Shown piece by piece: positions 33,974-56,082 of a stretch of 64,000 nucleotides of DNA (positions within the stretch are counted from its first letter, which is position 1; every line of letters starts with the position of its first letter). The DNA comes from a virus. The position numbers and the translations under genes are program-made. A model generated the notes under the pieces. That model ran no database searches and was not told where the DNA came from. It worked only from the letters and a program-made list of their open reading frames with translations. The DNA lies in IMG/VR virus record IMGVR_UViG_3300028800_000002, positions 64,001 to 128,000 of that record; one strand, written 5' to 3'.

Positions 33974-34618
33974 GTGCCGCTAAATGATGTCGGAAGTTAC
34001 ACTTTGGGCGAGGTCAACATCGCGCTGTTAGCTGGAGTTGGGCTGTTGAATCCGCTGTTGTTGCAGCTGGACTTGTTCATCACTGGGCAGTTTGGATTAG
34101 GCCCTTTCCTAGCGGATATCCAAGTACAGTTCAACGCTGCCATCGCGCTGCAGCTCCAACTTAGCTTCAGTATATCGAGTCCATTCCTTGCAATTCAGGC
34201 CACCATCACAGCGCTGGCTAACCTCCAGGCATCCTTGGCGTTAGCTCTGGCAATGGGGCTCCCTGTGGTGTCGCTGCAGATAAGCGCGCAGATTGCTGCG
34301 ATGGCTTCCTTGCAGGCCACACTTGCATTCAAGCTTGGGGGCATCAGAGCGCTACTGGCCGCGGGCCTAGCAGTGAAGATACCAGCTCTTCGGTTTGTAG
34401 CTCAAATGAATGCTGCATTGTCGGCGGGCCCCGTGCATGTACTGTCATTCACAGGGGATATGCTGGCTGTGACCGGAGCCGAGATTGCGGCGGCCTTTGC
34501 ATCCGGGCTCGGGCCCAATGATCCAATTTTACCGACAGAACAAGTGAGCGGGGTTATCATCCTGACCAAGGACCCTGCTGTTTTTGCCGCCTTGGGCGGT
34601 ATCATCAAAGTCAATTAG
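33974..34618 (+). CDS. very hydrophobic helical protein downstream of the spike
   Basis: Leu/Ala/Ile/Gln-rich with very few charged residues over 214 aa. Confidence 0.65.
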   Translation: MPLNDVGSYTLGEVNIALLAGVGLLNPLLLQLDLFITGQFGLGPFLADIQVQFNAAIALQLQLSFSISSPFLAIQATITALANLQASLALALAMGLPVVSLQISAQIAAMASLQATLAFKLGGIRALLAAGLAVKIPALRFVAQMNAALSAGPVHVLSFTGDMLAVTGAEIAAAFASGLGPNDPILPTEQVSGVIILTKDPAVFAALGGIIKVN

Positions 34619-34628
34619 GAGCCAGCGC

Positions 34629-40885: not shown

Positions 40886-41596
40886 CTAGGCGGGTTCAAC
40901 TTCCCGCGGGTACAGATTTGAGATGACTGCGTCGGTGACTTCACTCTTGATGAAGATCTTGTTGGCCACCTTGTACCCATGCCTACCGAGAACGTAGAGA
41001 TAAGCCACGTTGCGCAGGTTCCTTCGTGCAGCATCGAGGCAGGCAAATGCAAAGTCCAGGTTGGCGTCAGTGGCTCGGGCCCGGTGCAGCATGATCTCAT
41101 TGGCTAGTTGCAGGAAGTACTCCCACGGGCTTTCATCAAGCGTGTGGCGCGCGAGCAAATCGAGGTAGGCCTCATCGATTGCGTTGATGACCGCTGCCCA
41201 TTCCATGATGGATCCTGTGCGCCAATCTTCAGGTGGTACACGTAGTTCTTCGCGCACGCGGGCATATAGGTCAAAGATGTCGTCTTCCCCAGTTCCAAGC
41301 TTGTAGTTTTGGATTCCCAAGAAGTGACAGATTTGATCTAGCTTGCTGCTGACGGTGCGGCTAAGTGCCTGCGCTTGGACTGCAAGCATAGCGACCGATG
41401 GCATGTCGAGCTTTTGCTCGCGCACATCGGCCAGCGCGTGCACTTCTTCCACCCGGTACCTGGGCTCGTTGTGCGAGTCACCCGGCGTAAGCGGGTAGAT
41501 GAATCCCCTTCGAACCAACCGGCGCAATTGCCGGCACGAAACGCTCAGGATTTCTGAGGCTTCGGTGTGGCTGATGCTGTTGTCTGGACTTCCCAT
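40886..41596 (-). CDS. HTH (MerR/excisionase-like) DNA-binding protein
   Basis: ISHTEASEILSVSCRQLRRLVRRGFI...PRYRVEEV; start taken as ATG 41596. Confidence 0.65.
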   Translation of the reverse strand: MGSPDNSISHTEASEILSVSCRQLRRLVRRGFIYPLTPGDSHNEPRYRVEEVHALADVREQKLDMPSVAMLAVQAQALSRTVSSKLDQICHFLGIQNYKLGTGEDDIFDLYARVREELRVPPEDWRTGSIMEWAAVINAIDEAYLDLLARHTLDESPWEYFLQLANEIMLHRARATDANLDFAFACLDAARRNLRNVAYLYVLGRHGYKVANKIFIKSEVTDAVISNLYPREVEPA

Positions 41597-41629
41597 GGGC
41601 CGATTCAACGTGCTACTTCTATGGAACGA

Positions 41630-41637
41630 TGTATTGT
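41630..41637 (+). promoter_or_regulatory. putative -10 promoter (TGTATTGT)
   Basis: Hexamer ends 6 nt before GGAG (41644) upstream of ATG 41661. Confidence 0.4.
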
Positions 41638-41660
41638 TGCAACGGAGAAAGGCCAACGCC

Positions 41661-42923
41661 ATGAATGACGCCCCCATGCAGACAATTCTTCAGCAACGGG
41701 ATGCTCGACCCGTTTCCGGGGAGCACTTGGAGGTTCTCGGCAAAGCTGCTGCGACAAGCTGGACCCTTGGTAAGCATGCCTCGCTGAATGACGCCATTGT
41801 GGACACCATTCGCGGGGAGCGCCTTTCCCCCGAGCAGGTCCGGCGCGTGGTGGAGTTCACCAACGGTGACGCTTACCTGCGTGAATTCCGTAAGGAAGGC
41901 GCTGTGCATCGGGTTGTGAACTTTGACTGCGGTCCCGCATCGCCATCTCAGGTGCTTCAGGATTTGAACGATGGAGGCGGGGGCACCATCTCAGATCGAG
42001 GAACATTGGACTACGCGATGACCCCATCTATGGCCAAGCGCGCATCCGCGGATCGTGACACAACCCCCTTGGAGAAGACAGCCAGCGTTGAGCCCGCGCA
42101 GAAGGAGGCTTCTCGTTACGAGGACCATCTGTGGGAGATGTTGGGCGGTAATCCCAAGGGATCGATGCCTTTTGCAGAACCTTTGCGCCCTCTTGAAGAC
42201 CTGAGGCACAAACTGGCGGGGGCGCGCGATGCGACAGCGTCAGAGCTCGATGGTCTTGAAGTGGACTATGCCGACGTGTGCGACCGGCTGCATGGCCACG
42301 TGAAGCAGGCGTCTCTCGATGGAACTTCCCTTGGAGATATCGTGCGGGCCTGGGCCACTGTGGAATCTGATCCGGTGTACGTGAAGGTAGCGTTCAGTAT
42401 GCTGACTCCCCGCTTTCAGCGTGAGCAGCTATTCCCCTCGTTGGATGCCATCGGAGCTTCGCTCGAGAAGCGCGCCATGCGCGGCGAGGTGAATCCTCAG
42501 CATGATTTGGTCACGACATATGCCGAGTTTGTCGATGTTTTGAACAAGCTGGCCTCCATGCGTGTGGCGCACGACGAGCTCTCCGCCGGCGCGGACACTA
42601 CGGAGTCCTTGCTGAAACAAGGGGGAGGTGTCCTTGGGGCAGCAAAAAAAGGCCTTTCGATGGCCAGCCACGGCATTGATGCCGCGTCAAAACCACTCGC
42701 CCACATCCTTGTGGGCCCGCGTGATGCCAAGAAACTAGCTCCGGTGTTGGCCACGGGAGGCAAAGCGGTTGGCCTGCTTGGCGCAGGACTTGCCGGGAAT
42801 GCAGCAGTGCAGAGTGTCACAGATCGCCCTGCTGTGCAGAACACGACACGGGCGATCAAGTCTGTGGTGCCAGGCACCGCCGAGTATCAAAACCGTCGAT
42901 ATCGTAATATGACAGGGCAGTAA
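41661..42923 (+). CDS. putative head/core protein with K-x-A motifs and C-terminal glycine zipper
   Basis: Start ATG 41661; KRAS, EKTAS, KEAS, KQAS, EKRAM, KLAS; GKAVGLLGAGLAGNAAV. Confidence 0.7.
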   Translation: MNDAPMQTILQQRDARPVSGEHLEVLGKAAATSWTLGKHASLNDAIVDTIRGERLSPEQVRRVVEFTNGDAYLREFRKEGAVHRVVNFDCGPASPSQVLQDLNDGGGGTISDRGTLDYAMTPSMAKRASADRDTTPLEKTASVEPAQKEASRYEDHLWEMLGGNPKGSMPFAEPLRPLEDLRHKLAGARDATASELDGLEVDYADVCDRLHGHVKQASLDGTSLGDIVRAWATVESDPVYVKVAFSMLTPRFQREQLFPSLDAIGASLEKRAMRGEVNPQHDLVTTYAEFVDVLNKLASMRVAHDELSAGADTTESLLKQGGGVLGAAKKGLSMASHGIDAASKPLAHILVGPRDAKKLAPVLATGGKAVGLLGAGLAGNAAVQSVTDRPAVQNTTRAIKSVVPGTAEYQNRRYRNMTGQ

Positions 42924-42925
42924 CC

Positions 42926-43486
42926 ATGGCGAATCCAGTCGAAGAGTTCCTCCTTGTGAAACAGGCGTTGGGTTTTAGGGAGGCGTTGACCTCTCCTACA
43001 GCGAAACGTCTTGGCGGTGCTGCCGGTTCCGCGTTAGCTGCGGGTGCGGGCGCTGCGGCTTTTGCCGGCGCCGTTGGCGCTACCGAGAAGTTGTACTTGG
43101 CGGCGACTAAGTCTCGAGATTTTCGGAAGATGATCGAGGCTAATCCAGACTTACGCGAGCATCAGTCGCAAGACTCGGCTGGGTTCAATCGGATGTTCAC
43201 CTCACTACGCACCTTTGCTCCTGACTTCACACGTGAGCCCATGGTCGCTGGTGCTTACATGCGTAACGCCATGCTCTCTGATGAAGAAAGCCGTGGAATG
43301 CTAGGAGTTCGAGCTCAAGGTGAACTTCGTCAGCAACGGCAAGGAGCCATTCCTGAGGCTGCAATGTCAGGCTTTCAGAAGAATTTGGATACGGGCAAGA
43401 AGCCCATTGGGCAGACAAAGCACGTGTACGATCCAGAGGGTGATGGCTGGAAGCGCACGGAAGACTCAGAGAGTCGTTACGCGTGA
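42926..43486 (+). CDS. putative virion protein with N-terminal hydrophobic Gly/Ala segment
   Basis: VKQAL motif at residues 10-14, then GGAAGSALAAGAGAAAFAGAVG. Confidence 0.65.
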   Translation: MANPVEEFLLVKQALGFREALTSPTAKRLGGAAGSALAAGAGAAAFAGAVGATEKLYLAATKSRDFRKMIEANPDLREHQSQDSAGFNRMFTSLRTFAPDFTREPMVAGAYMRNAMLSDEESRGMLGVRAQGELRQQRQGAIPEAAMSGFQKNLDTGKKPIGQTKHVYDPEGDGWKRTEDSESRYA

Positions 43487-43510
43487 CGCTGACTTCAGCA
43501 GCAATCTTCA

Positions 43511-43519
43511 TGGTATTGT
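43511..43519 (+). promoter_or_regulatory. putative extended -10 promoter (TGGTATTGT), leaderless
   Basis: Hexamer ends 6 nt before GTG 43526 of the protease gene, which has no SD. Confidence 0.5.
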
Positions 43520-43525
43520 ATTGAT

Positions 43526-45274
43526 GTGATCAAGGTCAGCTTATTCCAAGGCAGCGAGGAGTATGGTCCTGCGGCGGTTCCACTGTTTGGAGCCGCCGAT
43601 TCATATTTCGAGAAGACTGCCTCCGCCACCTTGCTTCCTGAGGTCTCCAACTACATTGCGCAGTTGAGGCCGCGCAACGACTCCCAGTACGTGTTGGTCA
43701 ACGCCATGGGCGCCGGTGAGTACTACGGATCGAACATCAATGGAGACCGTTTCGCTGAGGCAGCCCTAATACATTCGCCGGACAACTGGAAGGGTGTGCC
43801 AGTCTTCGACAAAGCCATAGCTGCTCGCTGGGCGTATGGATTTCCTACGTTCTACCGTGCGCACGTGTTCCCTCATCATAGAAACAAGGACGCCGGCAAA
43901 GCCCTTGGCTTCGTGGAGCTGGCAGCGTGGAACAACCACATGAAGCGAGTCGAGCTCGTCACACGGCTCGATCAAGCGTTGTGCAGAAATTTCGGAGGGG
44001 ACAGTATTTGGGACAAGCTCAAGGCAGGGGATTTCCCCGATGTGAGCATGGGTACTAAGGTTCCATTTGACACTTGCTCAATCACGTTGGACCGTGAGTT
44101 GTACCAGCGCGCGTGGGACACTTACAACCCCAGGCGCCACAAGAGCCCTGGTGAGGCCATCCTAGAGTTCCACAAGAAGCTCAAGGAAAAGAACGGCATT
44201 GGCATTCGTGGCCTGAGCATCACGCGTAACGACTACTCAGATTACGCGCGCACACGGATGAATCACATCCTCCCCGACGGGCGCAAAGTCTGGGTGGACA
44301 ACGACTTTCCAGCGTTCTTCGACATCAGCTTCGTGTTCATTGGCGCGGACAAGATCGCCAAGGCGATGTTGAAGATTGCCGATGGTGGTCGTGTTTACAG
44401 CATTGGCTCCGCTGAGCTGGCAGAGAAACTTGGTGCAGTGGCTACGGAGGACATGCTTGAGAAGACTGCTCGTTTGCTCACGCGGTCTGATTTGGGTCTG
44501 CCCCCTCGCGAGAAAGAGGCGATGACCAAAGAGGTTGTGCCAAACCAACTCGCGGGTAAAGCCGTCCCGTTGTTGACCGCGCAGGAGCATGATCTTCCAG
44601 ATGAGGTGCTGCAGATGCTGGGCGCTGCCGGGCTGGATAAGGCCCTGACCACATCTGCCGGGCTTGGCATGGTGCTGCGTCCCCGCGAGTTCCAGCGGGT
44701 GACCCTCATCAGCATGGGGCAGTCAGATTTGGCGGAGCAGCTTGCCTCCATGGACCAACTGTTTCCCAAAGTTGAGGAAAAGTCCGATGTACCGATGGAC
44801 TCGGCTTCTTTTAGCCCCGTTTTGTCGCAGTTGTTGGCCCCTTTGATGGCGGACCGCTCGGCGTTTGGTCCGTTGATTGAGCACCGCGTGGTAATACTTG
44901 TAGGCGCCCCCGCCAAAAGTTCAAAGCCAAGTGCTTCCCATTCCTCGGAACTACTACGTAAGATTGGGGCAGCCTACAACGGTTATCGAGACAGCCTTAT
45001 GCAGTTTGTACCACAAGCGCAGGACTTGATTGAGTCAACAGCACCGCGTAGCGATGTCGTACTCCGCAAGATCGCTAGTGTGTCTGCTGCCGAACTCTTT
45101 ACCCCTTTGTCCTTCCGTTACATGTCGCAGGCGTTCCTCGATGAACTCCCTGTTGGAACTTCAGGACAAGGAGTGGTAAAGCAATCAAGCGACCAGGCTA
45201 TGGCCAGCGTGCAGAGGGCACTCCCCTTGGTGACCACGCGACTAAGTACACCACCAGTTACCACAGGAGTTTGA
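43526..45274 (+). CDS. prohead maturation protease (HK97/herpes-like serine protease fold)
   Basis: His strand VFPHHRNKD...ALG, catalytic Ser DVSMG, terminal strand FDISFVFIGAD..A equivalent to the EvSlV..pAn..A motif; upstream of scaffold and capsid. Confidence 0.75.
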   Translation: MIKVSLFQGSEEYGPAAVPLFGAADSYFEKTASATLLPEVSNYIAQLRPRNDSQYVLVNAMGAGEYYGSNINGDRFAEAALIHSPDNWKGVPVFDKAIAARWAYGFPTFYRAHVFPHHRNKDAGKALGFVELAAWNNHMKRVELVTRLDQALCRNFGGDSIWDKLKAGDFPDVSMGTKVPFDTCSITLDRELYQRAWDTYNPRRHKSPGEAILEFHKKLKEKNGIGIRGLSITRNDYSDYARTRMNHILPDGRKVWVDNDFPAFFDISFVFIGADKIAKAMLKIADGGRVYSIGSAELAEKLGAVATEDMLEKTARLLTRSDLGLPPREKEAMTKEVVPNQLAGKAVPLLTAQEHDLPDEVLQMLGAAGLDKALTTSAGLGMVLRPREFQRVTLISMGQSDLAEQLASMDQLFPKVEEKSDVPMDSASFSPVLSQLLAPLMADRSAFGPLIEHRVVILVGAPAKSSKPSASHSSELLRKIGAAYNGYRDSLMQFVPQAQDLIESTAPRSDVVLRKIASVSAAELFTPLSFRYMSQAFLDELPVGTSGQGVVKQSSDQAMASVQRALPLVTTRLSTPPVTTGV

Positions 45275-45278
45275 CCAC

Positions 45279-46082
45279 ATGTCGTCCATGAGCGCTCTAC
45301 TTGCAGATGTATTCCAAACCAAGACCGCTTCTGCTCACACCGAGGAAGACTTGGTAAAGCAGGCCGATTACGCATTCTTTGGCGCACTATGCCGTCAAGA
45401 AGGCATCGATGTTTCTGCCCTACCGGACGCCAAGGTAGAGGAACTGTTCAAGGTTGCCATGGAGATGAAGGCAGCCTCAGATCACGAGGAAACTGAAACT
45501 CCCAAGGAGGAGAAGATCGAGGAAGCTGCCAAGGAAAAGGCCAAGGAGAAGGAAGCTGCCGCGCGCGCCGAGTATCAAGAGAAGCGTGCTGCTGCCACCA
45601 AGGTCGCTGAGGCTGAGGCGATGGGCCGCATCATGGCGCACGCCTACGTCGATGAGATGAAGAAGATCGCGGAAGCTGCCGAAGAAGCCGAGAAGAACAA
45701 GGACGGCAAGTCTGGGTTCCCGTTCGGTAAGAAAGATGGCAAGAAGGACGACAAAGAGGAGAAGGAGAAGGAAGCTTCTGCTCGCGCCTCTGAGCTGATT
45801 GCTGCTTTTGAGCAGATGAAAACAGCCAGTGCTCCTGCCGCAGGCACCACCACGACCCCGAACTTCGATGAGTTCGCGGCCCTGCAGGCGATTGAACTGC
45901 TCAAGCAAGCCCAGGTCGATGAGGACGTCGCCTATGCTCGAGTCAATGCCGTGCGGACGCTGGGTCTGCCAGAGTCGACGAAGATGGCATCGGCTACGAG
46001 TGAGGCGAAGGCTCTCGAGTATCGCGCCCTTGAGATTTGTGACGCAGCCGGGTTCCAGGTTGACTGGACACAGGTCGCCTAA
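45279..46082 (+). CDS. putative scaffolding protein
   Basis: Directly after the protease; highly charged helical E/K/A sequence with about 12 K-x-A motifs. Confidence 0.55.
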   Translation: MSSMSALLADVFQTKTASAHTEEDLVKQADYAFFGALCRQEGIDVSALPDAKVEELFKVAMEMKAASDHEETETPKEEKIEEAAKEKAKEKEAAARAEYQEKRAAATKVAEAEAMGRIMAHAYVDEMKKIAEAAEEAEKNKDGKSGFPFGKKDGKKDDKEEKEKEASARASELIAAFEQMKTASAPAAGTTTTPNFDEFAALQAIELLKQAQVDEDVAYARVNAVRTLGLPESTKMASATSEAKALEYRALEICDAAGFQVDWTQVA

Positions 46083-46113
46083 CCCACTGGGGATTTTTCG
46101 GAATAGGTAAAAG

Positions 46114-47727
46114 ATGTGCGCATGGGAGTACAAACCGCAGTTCAGGAAGACCGCAGACGCGGTCTCCGTGCCTATCGCCGATTCGACGGTAGGTGCAGCT
46201 GCGACTGCTCCCTTGCCGGAGTTGGCAGTGGGGAACAAGCCCGCGCCCGGTCTAACCGGTCCCAAAGGCTTGGCCCCACGCACCAACTACTCTCGCGTCA
46301 ATTCCGGATCACCACCGCCCGCGGATTTGGGCTCCACTTCTCAGAAGGGGCTGCCGACAGATCCGCAAGGATTTTTGCCACCTAAGGTTGCGCACTACGA
46401 GGTTCCTATGACCGCGATGACCCAACGATATACGATTCAGGACATGATCAAGGCAGCCGCCGCAGGCGCCTCGAGTCAGGTCTCAGTTGCCCTCGAAGGC
46501 ACGAGACAACTCGCCAACTCTGGCGAGAAAGTTGCTTCAGCTACTGCACTAACCCCCAATGGGGAAGAGTCCATTTCGACAGCCTACGTTGAGAAGCTGG
46601 CGGCAGCAGTTGATTACATCATTGAGCTCAGCAAGGAAGCTGAAGAGCCTGGACCCGGTACGGGCCCTAATCCCCTTCAGGTTCTCGAAGCCAAAGCTTC
46701 CAACAATGAGATCGAGGCAGGGCACACGGGAGAGGCAACTCCTGCCCATTTGATTCCTAAGAATCCTGGGTTGCAACGACCCAGCGGAAATGCGCAGGGG
46801 CCGGCGAATGCCCTTGATGACAATGCGTCGTCAATGCTCCCGGCATACCCTGTCAAGCTTAGTTCAGCGGATATTGAATGCCTGCGTAAAGCAGCGGCGG
46901 GAAATCCAGAAGGCCATCACATTCGTCGTGAGATTCTAGGAAACCCCATTTCTTCTGCCATCGAGGCTAAGAAGGGTAAGAAACTGGAGTCTGCAGGCAA
47001 AGCTTGGTGGCACGGGGCTAAGGAAGGTCTCAAAGGCCTTGGCGCTGGTGCAGCTGCAGGAGGCGCCATTGGTGCTGGTGTTGGGGCATTGAAGGGTGGA
47101 CGCGCCGGTGCTGCTCAGGGAGCTGTACACGGTTCGGTGCGGGGCGCGCAGATCGGTGGAGCCGTTGGTGCACTAAAAGGCCGGCACGATACCGAGGCAA
47201 GTCGCATCCATGGGGAGCACAGCAAGCACAAGGAAGCTTCGGCTTCTGACGGTCGCTTGGTAGACTACTTCCTGTCCATGACGAAAGCCGCGGAAGATGC
47301 CATCAACCCAGCAAAGATTTCAGCGGGCGCAGCAGTGCCCCCTGAGACCTCGGCATCGGGTGAATCAGGTGGTGCTCCTGTCGGTGGTCAACCGCAAGGA
47401 CCTGTTGGTTTGATTGGCTCAAATGACGCAGCCATCAACTTTCAGAAGCGTGAAGCTAAAGCGCCGGTGAAAACACAAATGGCTAGGATTCTTACTGAGC
47501 CAGCGCTTTCCGCCGCACATGATCACACACTCGACCAAGCCTTTGACAACACGGGCAAGGCCGGCGTGAAGATTTCATCGTCAGTTCGAGCTCTGTCAGC
47601 TCGAGCCGTCCTCGAGAAGATGGCTGAAGAGGCTTGCGCAACAACACCACCTAAGAAGAAGGTGGGCGCGGGCATGGGGAACTTTCAAGCACCTCCAGTC
47701 GGCGGCGTAGCCGGCGCTGCGTCGTAA
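46114..47727 (+). CDS. putative internal head protein (Pro/Gly/Ala-rich, K-x-A motifs, glycine zipper)
   Basis: RKTAD, PKVAH, EKVAS, EKLAA, KEAS, EKMAE; GLGAGAAAGGAIGAGVGALKGG. Confidence 0.65.
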   Translation: MCAWEYKPQFRKTADAVSVPIADSTVGAAATAPLPELAVGNKPAPGLTGPKGLAPRTNYSRVNSGSPPPADLGSTSQKGLPTDPQGFLPPKVAHYEVPMTAMTQRYTIQDMIKAAAAGASSQVSVALEGTRQLANSGEKVASATALTPNGEESISTAYVEKLAAAVDYIIELSKEAEEPGPGTGPNPLQVLEAKASNNEIEAGHTGEATPAHLIPKNPGLQRPSGNAQGPANALDDNASSMLPAYPVKLSSADIECLRKAAAGNPEGHHIRREILGNPISSAIEAKKGKKLESAGKAWWHGAKEGLKGLGAGAAAGGAIGAGVGALKGGRAGAAQGAVHGSVRGAQIGGAVGALKGRHDTEASRIHGEHSKHKEASASDGRLVDYFLSMTKAAEDAINPAKISAGAAVPPETSASGESGGAPVGGQPQGPVGLIGSNDAAINFQKREAKAPVKTQMARILTEPALSAAHDHTLDQAFDNTGKAGVKISSSVRALSARAVLEKMAEEACATTPPKKKVGAGMGNFQAPPVGGVAGAAS

Positions 47728-47736
47728 TCGGAGACC

Positions 47737-48096
47737 ATGAACATGAAGAAGCTAAGTGCAGCTGATCAGCAGGCGGTCCTTGCGGAGGTCCCCGGTGCCT
47801 TGCGCAAAGTCGCTTTCGAGCGAGATTACTTCCGTGACATCGTTCTTGCGAACGCGTCGCGTCAAAGAATTGAGAAGATTGCTACCTCGATGATCGATAA
47901 AGGGATTCGAGACGGCAATGTTCAAACTGTGGCGGATGATTTGGAGAAGTCGGCGTCAGCCGGCTCCGTCAATATCGATGCCATTGAACAAGCTGTACAG
48001 CTTGTGGGCACGGACATGGGTAAGCAAGCCGCTGTGTCCGATGAGCTCTCTGGTTCCGCAGGGTCTAGCGACCTCGAGCGGTTTTTGCTTGGCTGA
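47737..48096 (+). CDS. small head-associated/scaffold-like protein
   Basis: GGAG SD; RKVAF, EKIAT, EKSAS, GKQAA. Confidence 0.65.
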   Translation: MNMKKLSAADQQAVLAEVPGALRKVAFERDYFRDIVLANASRQRIEKIATSMIDKGIRDGNVQTVADDLEKSASAGSVNIDAIEQAVQLVGTDMGKQAAVSDELSGSAGSSDLERFLLG

Positions 48097-48124
48097 CAGA
48101 GGCTGACAGGAGGAAAGTAGTAAG

Positions 48125-48652
48125 ATGTCGACGATTCAGAAAGTCAATTTTGAACCCGTCAGCGACATTCTGCCCATCTGGAGGAAAGACCTCCCGCTCG
48201 CAGACCAGTCGCTGGCATTGCCCGATAACGCGCTAGCCCTAGTGGATGGCGAATGGCTGACTATCGACACGAACTCAAAGTGGGTTCGAGGCGCGTCAGT
48301 CGCTGCTGCCGGCGTAGCTGCCACCGTTCGAAGCTTCATTTGCTTCAGTGAACGTGGGCGCTCTGACCGCATGGGCATGTCGGAAAAGAAGACCACGGCG
48401 TTGTTCCGCGGTGAATACGAGGGCGAGACTCGGGTCTTTGATGCCTCTGTCACTGTCGGCGCTGGCGCTGCACCCATCACGACCGTCCTGCAACCCCTCA
48501 AGGTTGCCTCGATCACGATTGGTTCACGTGTCTACTGCGGTCTTGTCGGCCATGGTGGGACGAACGACGCAAGCCCGGTCGTGGGCTATGTAACTCGGCT
48601 TCCAGGCAGCAACGGTGGTAAGCTCAGATTCATCTCGGGATACCGCAGCTAA
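48125..48652 (+). CDS. putative capsid decoration protein
   Basis: AGGAGG SD; beta-rich 175 aa immediately upstream of the major capsid gene. Confidence 0.5.
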   Translation: MSTIQKVNFEPVSDILPIWRKDLPLADQSLALPDNALALVDGEWLTIDTNSKWVRGASVAAAGVAATVRSFICFSERGRSDRMGMSEKKTTALFRGEYEGETRVFDASVTVGAGAAPITTVLQPLKVASITIGSRVYCGLVGHGGTNDASPVVGYVTRLPGSNGGKLRFISGYRS

Positions 48653-48706
48653 CCGCTGGAATCCCCCTAGTAATCGAACCAAGAAAAAGTACAAAGGAGA
48701 TTATCC

Positions 48707-49822
48707 ATGTCGGTTTCGGCGAGCGTTCTAAACGAGCTTTTTGCTTCAAAACTCAGCACGAGTGAAGGCAAAGAGAAGATTGCCGAATACGGTGGTTCTT
48801 ACATTCGTGACCGCCTTCGTGAGGTGAGCTTTGCTCGCAAAGTTATCCCGCCGGAGCAGGTTACGCGTGCGGACTGCCAACGTTCGGTAAACCACGACAC
48901 CTTGGTCAAGGTTGTGGACATTGAGCCACAATCGCGCGCCATGGCGATTACATTCCGAGGGCAACCCAATGCTCGCTTCATTCGAGGCGACAGGGCTGAG
49001 ATTGCCTTCTTCACCATCAGCTCTGAGATGTTCCAGAAGACGGAACAGGAGCTCTTGGCTTACGAGATGCCCATCACCAAGGTCATCGAAGAGAACTCGG
49101 TGAAGGACATCCAGGAGATTGAGGATCGTGAATTCACGATCCACATCGAGGCTGCGGTTCAAGCGCTGCAGACTGAGGCCAATGGTGGGACGTCAGTGCC
49201 CCTCCATGTAGGCACCATCGGGTCAACGGTTGAGTTCTCCGTGCGCAAGGGCGAGCTTGCTCGTAATGCGTCCGGGAACACGGCAGAGGTTCTGCCGGTT
49301 CAGCGCCCCGACCTCATCAACCTCTTCAAGATGCTGGACGGCAACCGACTGCGTGCTGAGCGCATGCTCATGACCGAGGTCGATTGGGATGACATTCTGC
49401 AATGGACGGTGGAAGACTTCGGTGACCGCGTTCAGTCTGAGACTACGGTCGATGGCTACAAGTACAATACCCTCCTGGGGCATTCGTACATTCGTACCAT
49501 CAAGACCGACATTCTCCGGCCGGGCAACGTCTACATCTTCACCAAGCCCGAGTTCTTTGGCAAGTTTTACGTGTTGAACAACACGAAGTTCTACATCGAT
49601 AAGATTGCCAACACGATCACGTTCCAGGCCTGGGAAGATATCGGTATGTCGGTGCTCAACATTGCCGCAGTTCGAAAGCTCGAATTGTACTCGGGTGATG
49701 CGACGCTGGGCGATGCAGACGGTCTGCTCACCAACTTCATTCCGAAGGCGGAAGACGCTTTGGGCGCGGTCAACAACCGCGTTTCCGAAGGGCTCAAATT
49801 CCCGCAGGTTTCTCAGTTCTAA
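48707..49822 (+). CDS. major capsid protein (HK97 fold)
   Basis: AAGGAG SD; 371 aa; follows protease, scaffold and decoration genes; followed by a strong terminator; alternating helix/strand pattern consistent with the HK97 fold. Confidence 0.8.
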   Translation: MSVSASVLNELFASKLSTSEGKEKIAEYGGSYIRDRLREVSFARKVIPPEQVTRADCQRSVNHDTLVKVVDIEPQSRAMAITFRGQPNARFIRGDRAEIAFFTISSEMFQKTEQELLAYEMPITKVIEENSVKDIQEIEDREFTIHIEAAVQALQTEANGGTSVPLHVGTIGSTVEFSVRKGELARNASGNTAEVLPVQRPDLINLFKMLDGNRLRAERMLMTEVDWDDILQWTVEDFGDRVQSETTVDGYKYNTLLGHSYIRTIKTDILRPGNVYIFTKPEFFGKFYVLNNTKFYIDKIANTITFQAWEDIGMSVLNIAAVRKLELYSGDATLGDADGLLTNFIPKAEDALGAVNNRVSEGLKFPQVSQF

Positions 49823-49847
49823 GCTGTGCTGTAGCGCAGACACGCGG

Positions 49848-49884
49848 AAGGGCGTCGGTGCCGTGGGCCCGGCGCCCTTTCTTA
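49848..49884 (+). terminator. intrinsic terminator after the capsid gene
   Basis: AAGGGCGTCGG-loop-CCGGCGCCCTT followed by TCTT. Confidence 0.75.
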
Positions 49885-49897
49885 GTTCTGGGAAAGT

Positions 49898-49905
49898 TGT
49901 ATGCT
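49898..49905 (+). promoter_or_regulatory. putative -10 promoter (TGTATGCT)
   Basis: Directly after the capsid terminator; hexamer ends 6 nt before GGAGG (49912). Confidence 0.5.
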
Positions 49906-49921
49906 CGGTGTGGAGGTTCAG

Positions 49922-50851
49922 ATGGCAGATGTGGAAGAGAAGGAAGCCCCTCAAGATGATGTCGGCCTGTTGCAGCGCCCGTGCCTTGAGGAGTTCATAG
50001 CCAGCGGCTATGCGGCAGATCAATACGACATTTACTTCGGTGAGCACTACGGCCCTGGTTGGAGCAACCCTGCTTGGAAGCCTGTGGAGGAATCCGGGCA
50101 CAGGCCTTCAGACATGGGCGCGTTAGCCAAGCTTGTGGAGGACCTAGAGTTACCTCCGATATTTCATGTGCGGAGCCAAGTTCGGAAGGTGGCTACCAGG
50201 ACCCTACGGTCACAGCAACCCACCCGGCATCGGTTCAAGCAGTACCTGTTCAGTGATCCAAGCAAGCGGCTCACACGTGCGCGTCACGTGAATGTGACCG
50301 CGATTGAGCTGGTGCAGAACCTGGACGAGCTCATTGCCCACGAAGGAGTAGGACGTCTTTCTGTGCATACCCCTGATGGGCGCCGCTTGGATTTGGCGCA
50401 GTTGAAGCGCGGCCTGCCTGTCCTGAGCGCACCTGCGGTGACCCCTGCACTCTACAATCGTCGGCTCGATTCCATCGCGCACGACTTACCCTCTGGCATC
50501 CCAATGCCCACCTATATCGACGGAACTTTCCCTGGCGATCCTGCAGCGCAGCGTGCCATGGAACGTATTGCGGCAGAGAAGCGGCACGAGGCTGTGCGGC
50601 AAGGCGCTTCAGTGGAAGAGCCCGCCCCTGTGGAGCCAGTTGCATCTGAGCCTACAGTAGAGGAGCCAACGGCTCCCGTCGCTGAAGTACCTACGGAGGA
50701 ACCTTCAGTAGTCGAGGAGACGTCTGAAATCTCCGAGGTACCTGACACGCAGGATGATGTGGTTGCTGAGGAAGATCCCCCTTCTTCGCCAGCTGTCGAC
50801 CCAGCTGCCAGTCGCTCAAGTTCAACTACACGTAAGAGGCATCGACGCTAA
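49922..50851 (+). CDS. hypothetical protein with acidic Pro/Glu-rich tail
   Basis: Start reassigned to ATG 49922 (GGAGG SD); EEPAPVEPVASEPTVEEPTAP repeats. Confidence 0.65.
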   Translation: MADVEEKEAPQDDVGLLQRPCLEEFIASGYAADQYDIYFGEHYGPGWSNPAWKPVEESGHRPSDMGALAKLVEDLELPPIFHVRSQVRKVATRTLRSQQPTRHRFKQYLFSDPSKRLTRARHVNVTAIELVQNLDELIAHEGVGRLSVHTPDGRRLDLAQLKRGLPVLSAPAVTPALYNRRLDSIAHDLPSGIPMPTYIDGTFPGDPAAQRAMERIAAEKRHEAVRQGASVEEPAPVEPVASEPTVEEPTAPVAEVPTEEPSVVEETSEISEVPDTQDDVVAEEDPPSSPAVDPAASRSSSTTRKRHRR

Positions 50852-51219
50852 TGCGCGTATTCAATCTCACGGATGTTTCAACACCCACGTTAGTGCGCTA
50901 CGGTCTGCTCAATCAGCAGATTGTGGTGCATCGGCGTTCTGTGTCGCCCGGGGAGTATGTCGAAGTAGAGGATACGGTCGACATGCGCACCCGATTGGAG
51001 CACGTGCTGACGTTGGGGGCTGTTTCGATAGACCAACTTCCACCGGCTTATGCGCAGGCCCGTCAGCAACAACAAGCTACACAGCACAGCACCTTTGCTG
51101 GAATTCCAGTGCGCCACGTGGATCTACAGGAAACCAAGGTGGCCGGTACAATCAATCAGCCGCAGCCCTCTTCTGTGGATGCAGCCATAACCCCCATTAG
51201 GAGAAAGGGACGTCCATGA
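50851..51219 (+). CDS. hypothetical protein (122 aa)
   Basis: TAATG coupling to the upstream gene. Confidence 0.6.
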   Translation: MRVFNLTDVSTPTLVRYGLLNQQIVVHRRSVSPGEYVEVEDTVDMRTRLEHVLTLGAVSIDQLPPAYAQARQQQQATQHSTFAGIPVRHVDLQETKVAGTINQPQPSSVDAAITPIRRKGRP

Positions 51220-51734
51220 CGGATGTGAACCGAGACACGTTGCAGGGATTGCCAGGGGTTACGCCGACCTTTAGAGCATTTGTGCAATCTGTTCGGTTGT
51301 ACACGCGTGATTTCCCTGAGCTCAACCGCCTTTTGACGGGCGAGGAATCGACGGACAGGCAAATTGCTTGGTCGGTTCTTGACGCGATGGCGGACTTCAA
51401 TGGAACACCGCACATAACGAGCTATCACTTGGAAGACCTCTTGGGCAGGAGCCAGCAGGCGTTGCTGCTACGCATGACGGTGATCTCGCTTATCGAGCAG
51501 GTAGGTTTGCTTCAGACCAGGAACCACATCAACTATTCGACAGGTGGGATCAACGTCGGCATCAACGACAAGACGCCGCTGCTGATGAATTGGCTGCAGT
51601 ATTACAAGTCGTATACCGACCAGCGCAAGCAACAGGTAAAGGTCGCCCTCAACATTGAGGGTATTCTTGGTCCAACAAACTCTGGAGTTTTCAGCGAGTA
51701 TTGGGCGGTCAACGCGACGTACGCACAGTTCTAA
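51216..51734 (+). CDS. putative head-tail adaptor (neck protein)
   Basis: Helical 172 aa (VRLYTRD...AMADFN...INYSTGGINV...) shortly after the capsid gene. Confidence 0.55.
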   Translation: MTDVNRDTLQGLPGVTPTFRAFVQSVRLYTRDFPELNRLLTGEESTDRQIAWSVLDAMADFNGTPHITSYHLEDLLGRSQQALLLRMTVISLIEQVGLLQTRNHINYSTGGINVGINDKTPLLMNWLQYYKSYTDQRKQQVKVALNIEGILGPTNSGVFSEYWAVNATYAQF

Positions 51735-51742
51735 AGGACGCC

Positions 51743-52213
51743 ATGATTATCATCAATAAGTATGCGACGATGACCGAGGCCAACCACAAGATCCGCGGGG
51801 GCATCGTTGGGGGCGTCCCCTGTAACGTACCCTACGGTGGACTTGTGGGTAAGACGTTGACCTTCAGTAATCCAGTCGGCGGCTCTTGTACTTTCAACCC
51901 TCAGTCAGGGCGAGGTTACGGACAACTGAACTTCGCTGACGTGAAAAGTCAGCTTGAGACGCAAGTCCCAGACATTGAAGTCATTACAATCGACAACAAG
52001 TTTGCGTTACGTCGTAAGACTGTAGGGCAAGTTGTGGCGCTACCAGCCATTGTCGATCCGGCAAACTATGAGGTGGCACGCGCCATCCTTGGCTTTAGCC
52101 CCGGGGAATTGATCTCGGGGCAGTATTTGAACGGTCCTTCGGGGGCAAACCCTAAGTACCTGGAGTTCGTTACCGAGTGCGGAAATGTCTACATTTCCAT
52201 TGAGGTGGACTAA
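51743..52213 (+). CDS. hypothetical virion protein (156 aa)
   Basis: Start ATG 51743 with AAGGA SD; beta-rich. Confidence 0.6.
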   Translation: MIIINKYATMTEANHKIRGGIVGGVPCNVPYGGLVGKTLTFSNPVGGSCTFNPQSGRGYGQLNFADVKSQLETQVPDIEVITIDNKFALRRKTVGQVVALPAIVDPANYEVARAILGFSPGELISGQYLNGPSGANPKYLEFVTECGNVYISIEVD

Positions 52214-53304
52214 TGGACGCGTTTCAACGAGGATTCAGCCGCGGTATTCCTTTGGAGAAGGCAGCATCCTTCTTCGTCGGTATGAAGTCGTGGCAACAGC
52301 CGCGGCCTTCGACATTGGCTGTTGCCAAGCAGGCAGCCGCACAAGTACTAGATTCACCGCTCACGCGCTTTCGGAAGATAGCCTCTGAGAATGAGGAGCC
52401 GGTTCAATCTGGTGCTGCGATGTCGACACCAACCCCTGATGGTGTTCCCGCCCAGGATAACTACCTAGCCAATGAGGCAGCGGGCCTGGAGGCTGAGAAC
52501 ACGGCCTCTGTGCAGTATTACCAAGGGTTGCTCGAGCAACTCCGTGGTGAGTCGGCTGAATCCCAACAGCGTGCAGAGCAGGCAGAGCAGCAAGCACAGC
52601 AGCTCGAGGCAGCGCAAGCAGAGCATGACAGCCAGTTGGCAGCCGCCCAGCAAGAGGGTCAGATTGCCCAGCAGGCGGCCATGCAGCAGGTGCAGAGCGC
52701 CAACATGGCTGCATCCACAGCTATGCAGCAGGCTGTGGACGCCGAGAACCGAGCGTTGCAGGCCAAGACGACTGAGACTTCGGCCAAGATTCAGCAGCAG
52801 CAACTTCGAAGTACTCTCCTCGATTTGGCAGCTCAAGGTCTCCCGGGTACAGAACCCGAGATGGGTGGCGAGGGAAATGCCGCTGAGGGTGTAGCTCCTG
52901 AACAAGTTCCGCAGGCGGGTGCCCCAGCGGATGGTACACAGCCCGGCGCTGAAGGTGGGCAGGAAGCAACGGCTGCTGCAGGCCCTGGCGCTGGTGGTTT
53001 GAATCAGCAAGGGCAACCGGCGAATGCCGAGGGAATGCCCGGGCAAGAGGCGTCGACTGAGACCGCAGGCGCCGCGGCACCCGGGACTCAACCGCAACCA
53101 GCGGGGGACGCCTCCGGTGGATCAGGCGCAGGATCAGGGACGGGACCGCAGTCCAACACTGACGGGCAGCCGTCACAGCCCGAGCAAGATCCCACGGCGA
53201 AGCGACAAGGGCAGGTCTCCATCAAGGTTGGAAGCCCTTCACTCGTTGCATTGATGGATCGCCTGGAGGCTAGCGGATGCCTCCCTTTAGCCCAGGGCAG
53301 GTAA
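52213..53304 (+). CDS. Gln/Ala coiled-coil protein with K-x-A motifs and low-complexity tail
   Basis: EKAAS, AKQAA, RKIAS; QQRAEQAEQQAQQLEAAQ heptads; G/P/Q/A tail. Confidence 0.65.
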   Translation: MDAFQRGFSRGIPLEKAASFFVGMKSWQQPRPSTLAVAKQAAAQVLDSPLTRFRKIASENEEPVQSGAAMSTPTPDGVPAQDNYLANEAAGLEAENTASVQYYQGLLEQLRGESAESQQRAEQAEQQAQQLEAAQAEHDSQLAAAQQEGQIAQQAAMQQVQSANMAASTAMQQAVDAENRALQAKTTETSAKIQQQQLRSTLLDLAAQGLPGTEPEMGGEGNAAEGVAPEQVPQAGAPADGTQPGAEGGQEATAAAGPGAGGLNQQGQPANAEGMPGQEASTETAGAAAPGTQPQPAGDASGGSGAGSGTGPQSNTDGQPSQPEQDPTAKRQGQVSIKVGSPSLVALMDRLEASGCLPLAQGR

Positions 53305-53663
53305 AAGCTGCCGGGCTTGCTCAGTATGCGAAGGACCCTCGAGTTATCGGGGGTCTGATCGGCGGTGGTTTAGGAGCAGGCCTGACCGCTTACGAAGCGT
53401 CTGGACGAGGGCCCGACCTGGACAAGTACCGACAGAGAATTGACCAGAAGGTGGAGAGGATGCAGCAGCCCGGCGTGCGTAACTTCGCGCGTGCAATGGA
53501 CATCTCTACCGACCGTTCATTGCTGACCGCGGGGGAAGCCGTGCAGGCGCACCCAGTTCTTTCCACGCTGGCCGCGGGAACCATGGGCGCCATCACCGGC
53601 GCCACCGCTGGGCCTGAGCTTGTACAATTGCTGCGCGAAGCGGCGTCGAGTTACCGGGGTTGA
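53277..53663 (+). CDS. small membrane-like virion protein
   Basis: GGAGG SD; VKAAG, then two GxxxG hydrophobic segments. Confidence 0.6.
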   Translation: MPPFSPGQVKAAGLAQYAKDPRVIGGLIGGGLGAGLTAYEASGRGPDLDKYRQRIDQKVERMQQPGVRNFARAMDISTDRSLLTAGEAVQAHPVLSTLAAGTMGAITGATAGPELVQLLREAASSYRG

Positions 53664-53685
53664 CCCTTTATTTTAGGAGAGCGTC

Positions 53686-56082
53686 ATGCTTGATCAGTAC
53701 CTGAGAGTTGCCTATGAAAGCACACAAACCAAGGTGGCCCATCGGGAGCTCATCGACCAGTTGAAGACTCTACCGTTGGAAGAGCTCATCAAAGCGGCCA
53801 ACGGTGACCCTACCTCCAAGCTGACATACACCGACGGCCCATCTGACGGTCAATGGATCGACAAATACAAGGGCACCCCTTTGTTCGAGAAGGCCATTGA
53901 GCTCGAGAAGCAACTCTTGCAGATCGACATGCAGGAGAACCAAGAGCACGCAGCGCGCCGCGCAGAAGAGAAAGCGGAGGAGCCACGCACCAATTTTTAT
54001 GACCAGCGTGATGCGCTCAAGCTGCAGCAGCGCATGCTCGATCTCGAACTGGCTACTTCTCAAGAGTCTGGCTCAAACCCTGAGGCTAAAGAGGAGCAAG
54101 GTGCACAGTTGATTGAACAAGCGCAGGCTCAAGAGATCGCCGAGGGCAAGGGCAACGAGCCCCATGAACAGGCCGAGACTGCCGCATTGAACCAGTTTCG
54201 ACAGGCGCAACAGCAAGAGGCGGTGGAAGCACCGAAGACCGCCAGTGCACTACACAACGCAGCCAAGGGGATCAAAGGCTATGCAAAAGCGCTCGGCGGT
54301 AAAGAGCACGATAAACTGCGTGCAGCCGCTTTAGGGCATCATTTGGCAGATGTCTTTGGGCGAGCGGACGCGAAAATACAACGTGATCCTAAGATGGGGA
54401 GAGTGCTCAAGATACGCGCGATGGGGCATGACGTGCGTAACCTATCCCCTGAGGGTATTGAAGCTAGCGCTGACAGGCATGCACATGCCTCTAAGAAGCT
54501 GCATGGTTTAGCAGACAAAGCTGCAGACAATACATCCCGTGCACGCAAAGGTACTGCTCGTGTGGCAGGCGCCCTTGGAGGTGCAGGTATTGCAGCCGCG
54601 GCAGTCTCTCATCACAAGAACAAGGAAAAGACTGCAGGCAGCATTGTGAACTCCATTGTCCCGGAAACGCGCAGCCTAGGGCGCACCCCTGCTGGAGATC
54701 ATGCACAGGGCGCTGGGGCTGGTGAGGTTTTCAGTGATCCATCAGCGACGGTAACTGAAGGGCTGCAGGTCAACAAGACTGCGTCAGTTGCCAGCGCCGC
54801 GAGTCGGTTCAAGGAGCTGGCCACTGGAAGCAAAGCCCGCAAGTTAGAGGAAACTGCTAGTAACTGGGGACGCGCTGCAAACCTTTCAGGCAAGCACCCT
54901 GCGGTTGCGGGAGCTGGTAAAGCTGCCGAACGTTACGGCAAGGCGGCCAGGACAGAGCGACTCAAGTCTCTTGGTACGCAGGCGGCCTCAGCGGGAGGGG
55001 CTGTTGCCGCTGGTGCTGGTGTGAAACACTTGGCGCGCAAAGAGAAGACGGCAACGCCCTATGACGATTATTTGAAGACAGAATTGAATCAGCGTGGGCA
55101 TGAGCAGAAGGCAAAGAGCCAAGAGGCACATCCCACCCGTACTAGGATCCTTGGGGCGCTATCCGAAGGTGCCCGTGTTGGTATACCTTTGGGCTTAGGT
55201 AGCGCTGGGGGCGCGCTTCTTATGACCCGCAATCCTCGGTTTGCGTTAGAGCAAGGTATGAAGGGTCTAGCCATTGGCGGAGGTCTTGGTGCATTGGGTG
55301 GTTCCATGCAAACTCCCGGTGAGCTCGATAGGAACATGGCATCTATGTATGGGGATGCGCTCACTCCTGATTCGTTACGAGAAGATGCTAAATCTAGTAG
55401 GGAGCTAGGTGACCATATTGATAAGCATCCTACTCAAATACGTGCTGCTAGGGGTATTGGCTTTGGAGCGGCAGGAGCCCTCGGAGGGAGGCTCATCGGA
55501 GGTGCTCTTGGTCATCCAGATTTAGGGACAGCTATCGGTGCTGGCGGTGGTGCATTACTTGGTGCTTTGCCGAAGCCTAGTGGAAAGGGAGCTCATCAGG
55601 ATGCCGCTGAGATCGAGAAGTACATGCAGACCCGTGGTATACCCACGGAAAAGCAGGCTGGCATTGGGAGCAGCATCATACAGGCAGGACAGTCAGCACT
55701 GACGGCTGGTAAAGGCATGCTTGCCAATGCTGGCGGTTTGTCTGGATTGGGTTCGAAGGCGATGGGTTTTGCCAAGGCAAATCCCCTTGCTACAGCCGGC
55801 ATTGCAGGCGGGGCCGGACTTCTTGCAGGCAAAGCCCTAGCGCGCCCACAACAGCAGAAAGTAGCTGCGGTCGATATTCGAAAGGCACTGCAAGGAGCCA
55901 AACAGCTCCCTTTTAGGGTGAAGACTCTTGCGACTGAGGCCTATCGCAAGGGCGGAGTTCCTGAGGTCATAGGAACCTTCGAGGACAAAGGCATGGGCGC
56001 GTTGCAGGGCGCCTCCTCGAAGTTAGAGTCTGCAAAGAAGAAGTTTCATGCGCTAGCAACCGAGTACAATCCCTACATCTAA
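53686..56082 (+). CDS. 798-aa modular protein delimited by K-x-A motifs (polyprotein-like)
   Basis: AGGAG SD; TKVAH, IKAAN, PKTAS, EKTAG, NKTAS, EKTAT, EKQAG, QKVAA; glycine-zipper segments before several motifs. Confidence 0.7.
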   Translation: MLDQYLRVAYESTQTKVAHRELIDQLKTLPLEELIKAANGDPTSKLTYTDGPSDGQWIDKYKGTPLFEKAIELEKQLLQIDMQENQEHAARRAEEKAEEPRTNFYDQRDALKLQQRMLDLELATSQESGSNPEAKEEQGAQLIEQAQAQEIAEGKGNEPHEQAETAALNQFRQAQQQEAVEAPKTASALHNAAKGIKGYAKALGGKEHDKLRAAALGHHLADVFGRADAKIQRDPKMGRVLKIRAMGHDVRNLSPEGIEASADRHAHASKKLHGLADKAADNTSRARKGTARVAGALGGAGIAAAAVSHHKNKEKTAGSIVNSIVPETRSLGRTPAGDHAQGAGAGEVFSDPSATVTEGLQVNKTASVASAASRFKELATGSKARKLEETASNWGRAANLSGKHPAVAGAGKAAERYGKAARTERLKSLGTQAASAGGAVAAGAGVKHLARKEKTATPYDDYLKTELNQRGHEQKAKSQEAHPTRTRILGALSEGARVGIPLGLGSAGGALLMTRNPRFALEQGMKGLAIGGGLGALGGSMQTPGELDRNMASMYGDALTPDSLREDAKSSRELGDHIDKHPTQIRAARGIGFGAAGALGGRLIGGALGHPDLGTAIGAGGGALLGALPKPSGKGAHQDAAEIEKYMQTRGIPTEKQAGIGSSIIQAGQSALTAGKGMLANAGGLSGLGSKAMGFAKANPLATAGIAGGAGLLAGKALARPQQQKVAAVDIRKALQGAKQLPFRVKTLATEAYRKGGVPEVIGTFEDKGMGALQGASSKLESAKKKFHALATEYNPYI

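Follow-up and report, generated by a model that had tools for sequence, protein, structure and literature searches.

The locus described here raises the question of whether a long, modular protein of a jumbo myophage is made as a precursor and cut into smaller proteins within the head, and what the resulting pieces might do. The gene, which we designate P0001, is located at 53686-56082 (+) of a 64,000-nucleotide stretch of DNA (the window), which corresponds to bases 64001-128000 of IMG/VR record IMGVR_UViG_3300028800_000002, which is complete, 186,443 bp long and bounded by direct terminal repeats. An earlier note on this DNA, made without database searches, had read the product as a polyprotein that is packaged in the prohead, cut at K-x-A sites and ejected as several membrane-active peptides that help cross the host envelope. 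The 798-amino acid open reading frame (ORF) behind that reading was confirmed. It is preceded by a Shine-Dalgarno sequence, AGGAG, at 53675-53679 (+), with a spacer of 6 nucleotides to the ATG, and the start codon is common to 17 aligned homologues. Our analysis gives about an even chance to the proposal that P0001 is a precursor of internal head proteins that is cut at K-x-A by the phage's own protease. The K-x-A feature itself is real and statistically solid in the sequence.

Conserved K-x-A sites in P0001

The alanines of six K-[T/Q/V]-A motifs fall at residues 186, 317, 366, 456, 658 and 727 of P0001 and delimit segments of 131, 49, 90, 202, 69 and 71 amino acids, as the earlier note had stated. 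The list was incomplete, however, since a seventh site, K16-V17-A18, had been missed. This site is the best conserved of all, with both the lysine and the alanine invariant in 17/17 homologues. Conservation was assessed in an alignment, designated A1, of P0001 and 17 close homologues (18 sequences). Sites 18, 317, 366 and 658 were retained in at least 13 of 15 homologues (15 of 16 for site 317), compared to a mean column identity of 29%. Site 456 was moderately conserved (7/11 homologues), and conservation of sites 727 (4/5) and 186 (2/14) was weak or clade-specific. Altogether P0001 contains 12 K-x-A motifs, four of which were never retained in homologues; another, at residue 38 and inside a helix, was also retained in at least 13 of 15. 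The K[TQV]A class, which was picked post hoc, occurs seven times compared to 1.4 expected (P ~0.0004).

An AlphaFold2 (AF2) model of P0001 was generated from the 18-sequence alignment (predicted local distance difference test score, pLDDT, 58.9). The model is an all-helical chain in which helical hairpins are confident only in residues 457-650. The sites at 186, 317, 366, 456, 658 and 727 all lie in non-helical segments of pLDDT < ~66 and are predicted to sit in disordered linkers. A single compact fold that buries the motifs, the structural outcome that the earlier note had set against its own reading, was not seen.

K-x-A is over-represented across the head gene block

The head block was defined by position alone, as the ORFs from 41499 to 53686. 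Within it, K-x-A was the most over-represented of the 400 possible X-x-Y patterns (z = 6.4). The same pattern ranked first in the syntenic head blocks of two related phages, L002 (z = 5.1) and L004 (z = 5.3), and second in that of a third, L003 (z = 4.3). Salmonella phage Arash (L001), the closest cultured relative found, likewise has K-x-A in first place in its head block (z = 6.4); its major capsid protein (MCP) is just 28% identical. No enrichment of K-x-A was found in the downstream block, which presumably encodes neck and tail proteins (z = 0.7), and neither the T4-type L/I-x-E nor the phiKZ-type S/A/G-x-E motif was enriched in the head block.

The residues that surround the motif are also biased. 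Genome-wide, K.AS occurs 44 times, compared to 17 ± 4 when residues are shuffled within each protein, and eight proteins account for 29 of the occurrences. Over 155 sites, Leu was over-represented 3.5-fold at position -5 (P5) and Glu 3.8-fold at position -4 (P4). The residue after the motif alanine (P1') was most often Ser (7.2-fold), then Ala, then Gly, and was followed by Ala or Val. The extended form of the motif is thus [L]-[E]-K-x-A-[S/A/G]. In many head-block proteins a site lies 14-34 residues from the N-terminus. These comparisons of sequences support the view that K-x-A is a conserved signal of the whole head block and is not peculiar to P0001.

A candidate prohead protease encoded upstream of P0001

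A candidate for the enzyme that recognizes these sites is encoded at 43526-45274 (+), 8 kb upstream of P0001, directly upstream of a gene for a 267-amino acid charged protein and three genes upstream of the MCP gene. The 582-amino acid product (P0029), a probable prohead protease, has a predicted gp21-fold N-terminal domain at approximately residues 14-276 and carries conserved K-x-A motifs at residues 30-32, 313-315 and 515-517. The N-terminal domain is highly conserved in 1562 database proteins. In the ESM Atlas, the nearest annotated clusters are Peptidase_S77 and S80. When the AF2 model of the protein (pLDDT 65.6) was searched with Foldseek, the top three matches were to T4 gp21 (5jbl; E-value 0.055, probability 0.92). 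In a VIA-align search of 48,161 chains, T4 gp21 was the only chain at Z >= 5 (Z 6.1-6.2; the next chain, 4.5), with 135-137 of ~165 residues aligned at a root-mean-square deviation of 3.5 Å. A phmmer search against the PDB found nothing.

H117/H118 and S174 are invariant, the serine in a P-x-V-S context. By eye, PDVS174 lies 56-57 residues past H117/H118, compared to PGVS140, which lies 55 residues past H85 in T4 gp21. The predicted fold and these residues make it likely that the gene encodes a prohead protease of the gp21 fold. Arash gp222, a virion-detected homologue of the candidate (E-value 6e-28), has sites at residues 32, 388 and 472. Arash gp218, considered as the homologue on the basis of syntenic position, was rejected in favor of gp222. 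Some homologues of the candidate (P0066, P0067, P0070, P0071 and P0138) contain inteins of ~380 amino acids with LAGLIDADG/Hint Pfam domains. Two insertion points were seen, one at approximately residues 174-177 and the other between T183 and C184, neither of them more than 10 residues from the invariant S174.

Module structure of P0001 and its variation among homologues

The K-x-A sites divide P0001 into parts with distinct properties. Residues 1-18 (53686-53739, +) would form a short N-terminal propeptide that ends with K16-x-A18 and resembles a T4 capsid targeting sequence. Residues 19-186 (53740-54243, +) form an acidic domain (net charge -15) that is predicted to be helical, as the earlier note had proposed, and that is the conserved core of the family. 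This domain is a probable targeting or scaffold-like propeptide. Module A, residues 187-317 (54244-54636, +), is basic (+13), contains a glycine zipper and a basic tail, ends with EKTA before G, and is variable among homologues. Module B, residues 318-366 (54637-54783, +), is a conserved 49-amino acid Gly/Pro-rich peptide with a conserved site on each side; it has no predicted secondary structure and a pLDDT below 35 in the AF2 model. Module C, residues 367-456 (54784-55053, +), is similar in layout to module A, with a charge of +11, a glycine zipper, a basic tail and EKTA before T at its end.

Module D, residues 457-658 (55054-55659, +), is the sole confidently folded part (pLDDT ~78-91), a predicted helical bundle made of a duplicated glycine-zipper hairpin unit. 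Its two halves are alike (z = 4.1), which indicates an internal duplication; the 202 amino acids hold four zipper clusters, and no conserved K-x-A site lies inside the module. Module E, residues 659-727 (55660-55866, +), is basic (+6) and is the terminal glycine-zipper module in all homologues; residues 695-719 match DUF883_C below the threshold. Module F, residues 728-798 plus the stop codon (55867-56082, +), is an add-on beyond site 727. In all, P0001 contains 22 overlapping zipper matches that form eight clusters. The three zipper and basic tails quoted in the earlier note, as well as the four zipper clusters of the 202-amino acid segment, were thus present. Self-alignment of the modules, which the note had suggested as a check, gave weak similarity between A and C and between A and E (Smith-Waterman z = 3.7 and 3.0 compared to shuffles).

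P0001 and 26 neighboring proteins were compared with Pfam, PHROGs and NCBIfam, and only the MCP, TerL and sub-threshold glycine-zipper models were matched. A tblastn search with P0001 against 50,697 phage records gave no match. No meaningful fold match was found for the AF2 model with Foldseek (best E-value 0.8), and the top VIA score (Z 7.8), to generic helical and transmembrane hairpins, is background for helical models. The N-terminal domain had no usable match in the ESM Atlas. The family comprises 27 close homologues and, at an E-value of 1e-3 or less, 581 clusters at 50% identity, with lengths of 143-770 amino acids. The part matched is usually the N-terminal 130-150 residues. Of 150 family representatives, 119 have a K-x-A that ends between approximately residues 11 and 30, usually at 16 or 18, and a glycine zipper lies within the last 60 residues of 129.

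The earlier note had asked whether homologues differ by whole modules, and they do. Among close homologues the N-terminal domain and module E are always found, and modules A, C, D and F are gained or lost as blocks. Lengths range from 548 to 803 amino acids among the close syntenic relatives, in which the neighboring tail genes are constant in size. In two homologues, P0003 and P0006, the site found once in P0001 (658) is present in two copies, and a cassette of ~190 amino acids fits exactly between them. This cassette (columns ~1000-1150 of alignment A1) is made up of two repeats that match DUF6582 weakly and has K-x-A on both sides. Past site 727, 5/17 homologues extend by a stub of ~17 amino acids, and the others stop at or before it.

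A further cassette, of 120-150 amino acids, is found within P0001 orthologues P0010, P0017, P0018, P0021, P0023 and P0027, and is present here in a different gene of the head block, at 46114-47727 (+), at 36-51% identity (E-values 1e-11 to 7e-20). That gene encodes a 537-amino acid low-complexity protein with five sites, in which the cassette occupies approximately residues 256-376 and has the form PEGHH...Gly-zipper...HGEHSKHK. The presence of the cassette in one gene here and inside P0001 orthologues elsewhere suggests that modules are exchanged between two head genes. A substrate built from cassettes in this manner is unusual.

Proposed processing of P0001

These observations can be combined in a model for the fate of P0001. 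The protein would be made late and brought into the prohead core by its 18-residue N-terminal peptide and acidic helical domain. There the gp21-fold protease encoded at 43526-45274 would cleave it on the C-terminal side of the Ala in [L]-[E]-K-x-A-[S/A/G]. Cuts would be expected at the conserved sites 18, 317, 366 and 658, in this phage probably also at 456 and 727, and perhaps at 186. The position of the cut, with Lys at P3, Ala at P1 and Ser, Ala or Gly at P1', is assigned by analogy with known prohead-protease codes. We consider it probable that P0001 is cleaved, and cleaved at this bond.

The acidic N-terminal part would act as a propeptide, and may not be a product itself. The basic pieces, each with a zipper helix and a few basic residues at its end, and the bundle of residues 457-658 would stay with the DNA and exit the head at infection. 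The basic zipper-ended pieces and module D are conserved enough to suggest that they are products rather than waste. That the fragments are retained in the head and ejected seems to us slightly short of an even chance. With their C-terminal zippers, the pieces would resemble tail-anchored proteins that are able to enter a membrane post-translationally. Insertion into, or activity on, a membrane is the more doubtful part of the model and is put forward tentatively.

Weighing the proposal against alternative explanations

Several observations weigh against this model, beginning with the enzyme. Only the His and the Ser of the putative catalytic triad could be located in the candidate sequence. 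The product of 43526-45274 had no Pfam match (E < 0.01), the S77 model (PF03420) found nothing genome-wide, and neither hhalign against T4 gp21 nor a PDB profile search found anything. The assignment as a protease thus depends on a fold match of moderate strength between a predicted structure (pLDDT 65.6) and gp21 (Z ~6). As for the substrate, the case for cleavage is comparative, for P0001 and its homologues alike. P0001 is rich in Lys and Ala, and plain K-x-A is no more frequent in it than chance predicts (12 compared to 10.6 ± 2.8), so that the signal in P0001 is carried by the K[TQV]A excess, by conservation and by the head-block-wide enrichment, and not by the plain count. In this clade, K-x-A-[S/A/G] is absent from the MCP, which has at residues 24-26 a K-I-A with Glu as the next residue. 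A profile search found no P0001 homologue in the Arash genome. The published virion proteome of Arash includes gp220, gp223, gp225 and gp226, reported without an analysis of processing.

Other points concern the proposed action at membranes. The earlier note had ascribed one architecture to three segments, an amphipathic stretch followed by a hydrophobic GxxxG helix, basic residues and the next motif. The GxxxG zipper, basic tail and motif were borne out, but the amphipathic stretch was not, because the highest hydrophobic moments in modules A, C and E were no different from those of shuffled sequences. On the Kyte-Doolittle scale the zippers are weakly hydrophobic (means over 19 residues, 0.96-1.35), so that strong, transmembrane-grade hydrophobicity was not supported either. 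All Pfam matches to glycine-zipper models were below threshold (DUF883_C, PF19029, 19.7 bits compared to a cut-off of 27). Weak matches to DUF883_C were found in 9/18 homologues and to Gly-zipper_YMGG (PF13441) in 5/18. The polyprotein reading of the note is thus supported in part, by the head-block motif, the probable protease, the placement of sites in linkers and the variation by modules, and not by amphipathicity or transmembrane-grade hydrophobicity.

Three other explanations were weighed against the same data. P0001 could be cut at the same sites and yet yield core or scaffold aids that leave through capsid pores before DNA packaging, like T4 gp22, gp67 and gp68, with no role at infection or at membranes. 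The acidic helical N-terminal domain is scaffold-like, the gene lies in the head block beside that of a clearly scaffold-like multi-site protein, the middle region is very variable, as would fit a filler, and T4 core proteins are cut to many fragments, most of which exit the head (PMC9026906). A conserved, confidently folded domain of 202 amino acids without a conserved internal site (module D) fits this explanation poorly, as does a terminal glycine zipper in 129 of 150 representatives, which is unexpected in discarded material; the basic fragments (+13, +11 and +6) would moreover tend to remain with DNA. We regard such a disposable role as unlikely. Somewhat less likely still is that K-x-A-[S/A/G] is a binding or packaging signal, such as a helix-capping or docking motif for the scaffold or portal, and that P0001 remains intact as a long, flexible and modular protein, internal to the head or associated with it. 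Enrichment and conservation show that the motif is functional and not which function it has, and the fold match of the protease is moderate. However, the fixed i/i+2 pattern, the preference for Ser right after it, and the location of sites in disordered linkers, 14-34 residues from many N-termini and near both ends of the protease-like protein mirror known prohead-protease codes (PMC10052503, PMC9026906), and both cassette boundaries and homologue C-termini coincide with sites.

P0001 might also belong to the tail, as a tape measure or some other protein of the tail channel whose Gly-rich segments are hydrophobic. Its length, its helices and its Gly content would fit, and its gene is the last one ahead of the motif-free block, the probable source of neck and tail parts. 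The tape measures of some phages are processed and have membrane-active segments. No tape-measure match to P0001 was found in Pfam or PHROGs, however; a 1153-amino acid ORF elsewhere in the genome, itself a candidate tape measure, had no PHROG match. A tail function is disfavored because the length of P0001 varies both among syntenic relatives (548-803 amino acids) and family-wide (143-770), next to tail genes of constant size, and because P0001 shares the head-block motif and its N-terminal site. We consider a tail function very improbable.

Processing of P0001 into internal head proteins can be extended to a broader picture of a large and almost entirely uncultured clade of ~180-200-kb myophages that includes Arash. 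In these phages, heads would be matured by a gp21-fold protease with the herpesvirus-like combination of Ala at P1 and Ser at P1', and with Lys at P3. Its substrates would include cassette polyproteins whose modules are exchanged between head genes at the sites, and which are released as tail-anchor-like zipper peptides that are ejected with the DNA and insert in the host membrane, possibly helping DNA and a virion RNA polymerase across. Taken as a whole this picture is speculative and, in our judgment, rather improbable. Our literature search found nothing on a K-x-A code, on phage ejection proteins with glycine zippers or on how Arash-like phages mature their heads.

Should the K-x-A code prove real, sequence alone would reveal which head proteins are processed in Arash and in hundreds of jumbo phages that have not been cultured, including propeptides, mature ends and internal proteins. 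A phage protease with assemblin-like Ala/Ser specificity would stand beside the Glu-cutting enzymes of T4 and phiKZ and bear on the evolution of specificity within a shared fold. Site-bounded modules that are gained, lost and moved between genes would represent a little-documented route for the diversification of phage head cargo, and glycine-zipper cargo would offer a testable candidate for the way in which giant phages pass the host membrane, a poorly understood step of infection.

Other genes with K-x-A sites

The 267-amino acid charged helical protein encoded downstream of the protease gene, at 45279-46082 (+), is a scaffold-like putative substrate with seven K-x-A-[S/A/G] sites, and with 9-10 in relatives. 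Two further proteins are probable substrates, a 734-amino acid protein encoded at 34584-36788 (+) with 12 K-x-A-[S/A/G] sites, and a 474-amino acid protein encoded at 41499-42923 (+) with eight sites and a C-terminal glycine-zipper stretch. The latter is a third head-block protein of this type, and the called start of its ORF appears to be too far upstream, as the first ~50 residues look junk-like. The MCP gene is located at 48707-49822 (+) (phrog_2522, E-value 1e-13). All four phages of the clade share the K24-I25-A26 near the N-terminus of its product; in Arash, a K-E-A with Gly after it is offset by two residues in the alignment. Judged from these sequences, the motif may be an N-terminal maturation site of ~26 residues. 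Of the Arash proteins annotated as structural, gp220, gp223 and gp225 each contain 5-7 K-x-A-[S/A/G] sites, and a single site lies at residue 29 of the MCP, gp226.

The gene just upstream of P0001, at 52213-53663 (+), has three K-x-A sites within its first 57 residues and is split into ORFs of 363 and 128 amino acids in different frames. In three relatives it is a single ORF of 482-515 amino acids. By tblastn, homologue residues 1-357 match in one frame and 364-481 in another, which places the frame shift near 53236-53306. The split could be an assembly error, a true split or a programmed frameshift. Beyond the motif-free block, a Gly/Ala-rich protein of ~203-221 amino acids encoded at 63654-64265 (+) and its orthologues in L002-L004 have two conserved K-x-A motifs at approximately residues 108-126 in all four phages, suggesting that the code may reach beyond the contiguous head block.

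Comparison with known systems

The proposed cargo can be compared with two groups of proteins. The ejection proteins of podophages (P22 gp7/gp20/gp16; T7 gp14/gp15/gp16) are stored in the head until infection, when they exit and function at the host envelope. We know of none that is released from a polyprotein. P0001 has no sequence or fold similarity to these proteins, which are mentioned in PMC10052503, and its phage is a contractile-tailed myophage. ElaB, YqjD and YgaM (DUF883) are tail-anchored inner-membrane proteins with a C-terminal glycine-zipper helix. The predicted fragments of P0001 are alike in their order of a helical or basic stretch, a zipper and a few basic residues, but the zippers of P0001 are less hydrophobic than typical anchors, and the similarity is confined to the zipper and is sub-threshold.

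The recognition code resembles in part that of herpesvirus assemblin, which cuts at (V/L/I)-x-A before Ser. The Ala at P1 and the Ser at P1' are thus shared with the scissile bond proposed here, whereas P3 is Lys in place of a hydrophobic residue, and virus lineage and substrates differ. Assemblin belongs to the same fold family as gp21 (PMC5694885, PMC9026906).

SPN3US gp245 and phiKZ gp175 (MEROPS S80), with ejection or inner-body proteins such as SPN3US gp53/gp54, offer a comparison among jumbo myophages with a virion RNA polymerase (PMC10052503, PMC5694885). Many head proteins are processed in these phages, and gp245, which recognizes A-x-E and prefers Ser at P1', removes propeptides of 20-254 amino acids that are themselves cut several times (PMC10052503, PMC5694885). 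The protease also removes a C-terminal propeptide of its own (PMC10052503, PMC5694885), to which the K-x-A sites at both ends of the candidate protease can be likened. The systems differ in that the motif of these enzymes, A-x-E or S/A/G-x-E, has Glu at P1, compared to Ala at P1 and Lys at P3 here. P0001 also has no sequence relatives in deposited phage genomes, and cassette shuffling and glycine-zipper ends are not described for the SPN3US and phiKZ proteins in PMC10052503 or PMC5694885.

The T4 gp21 system, with the internal proteins IPI-III and Alt and the core proteins gp22, gp67 and gp68, differs in its L/I-x-E code and has no detectable sequence similarity to the proteins described here; the candidate protease is a 582-amino acid protein with a long helical C-terminal part, and the substrate is a 798-amino acid modular glycine-zipper protein. 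To our knowledge, such a substrate has no counterpart in T4. The likeness lies in the arrangement, since both systems have an assemblin-fold serine protease in the head module, here by predicted fold. In T4, as proposed here, a three-residue code with fixed P3 and P1 directs the removal of short N-terminal capsid targeting sequences and the cutting of core proteins in several fragments, and internal proteins are ejected (PMC9026906). K-x-A is thus probably a new code that is read by machinery of a familiar type.

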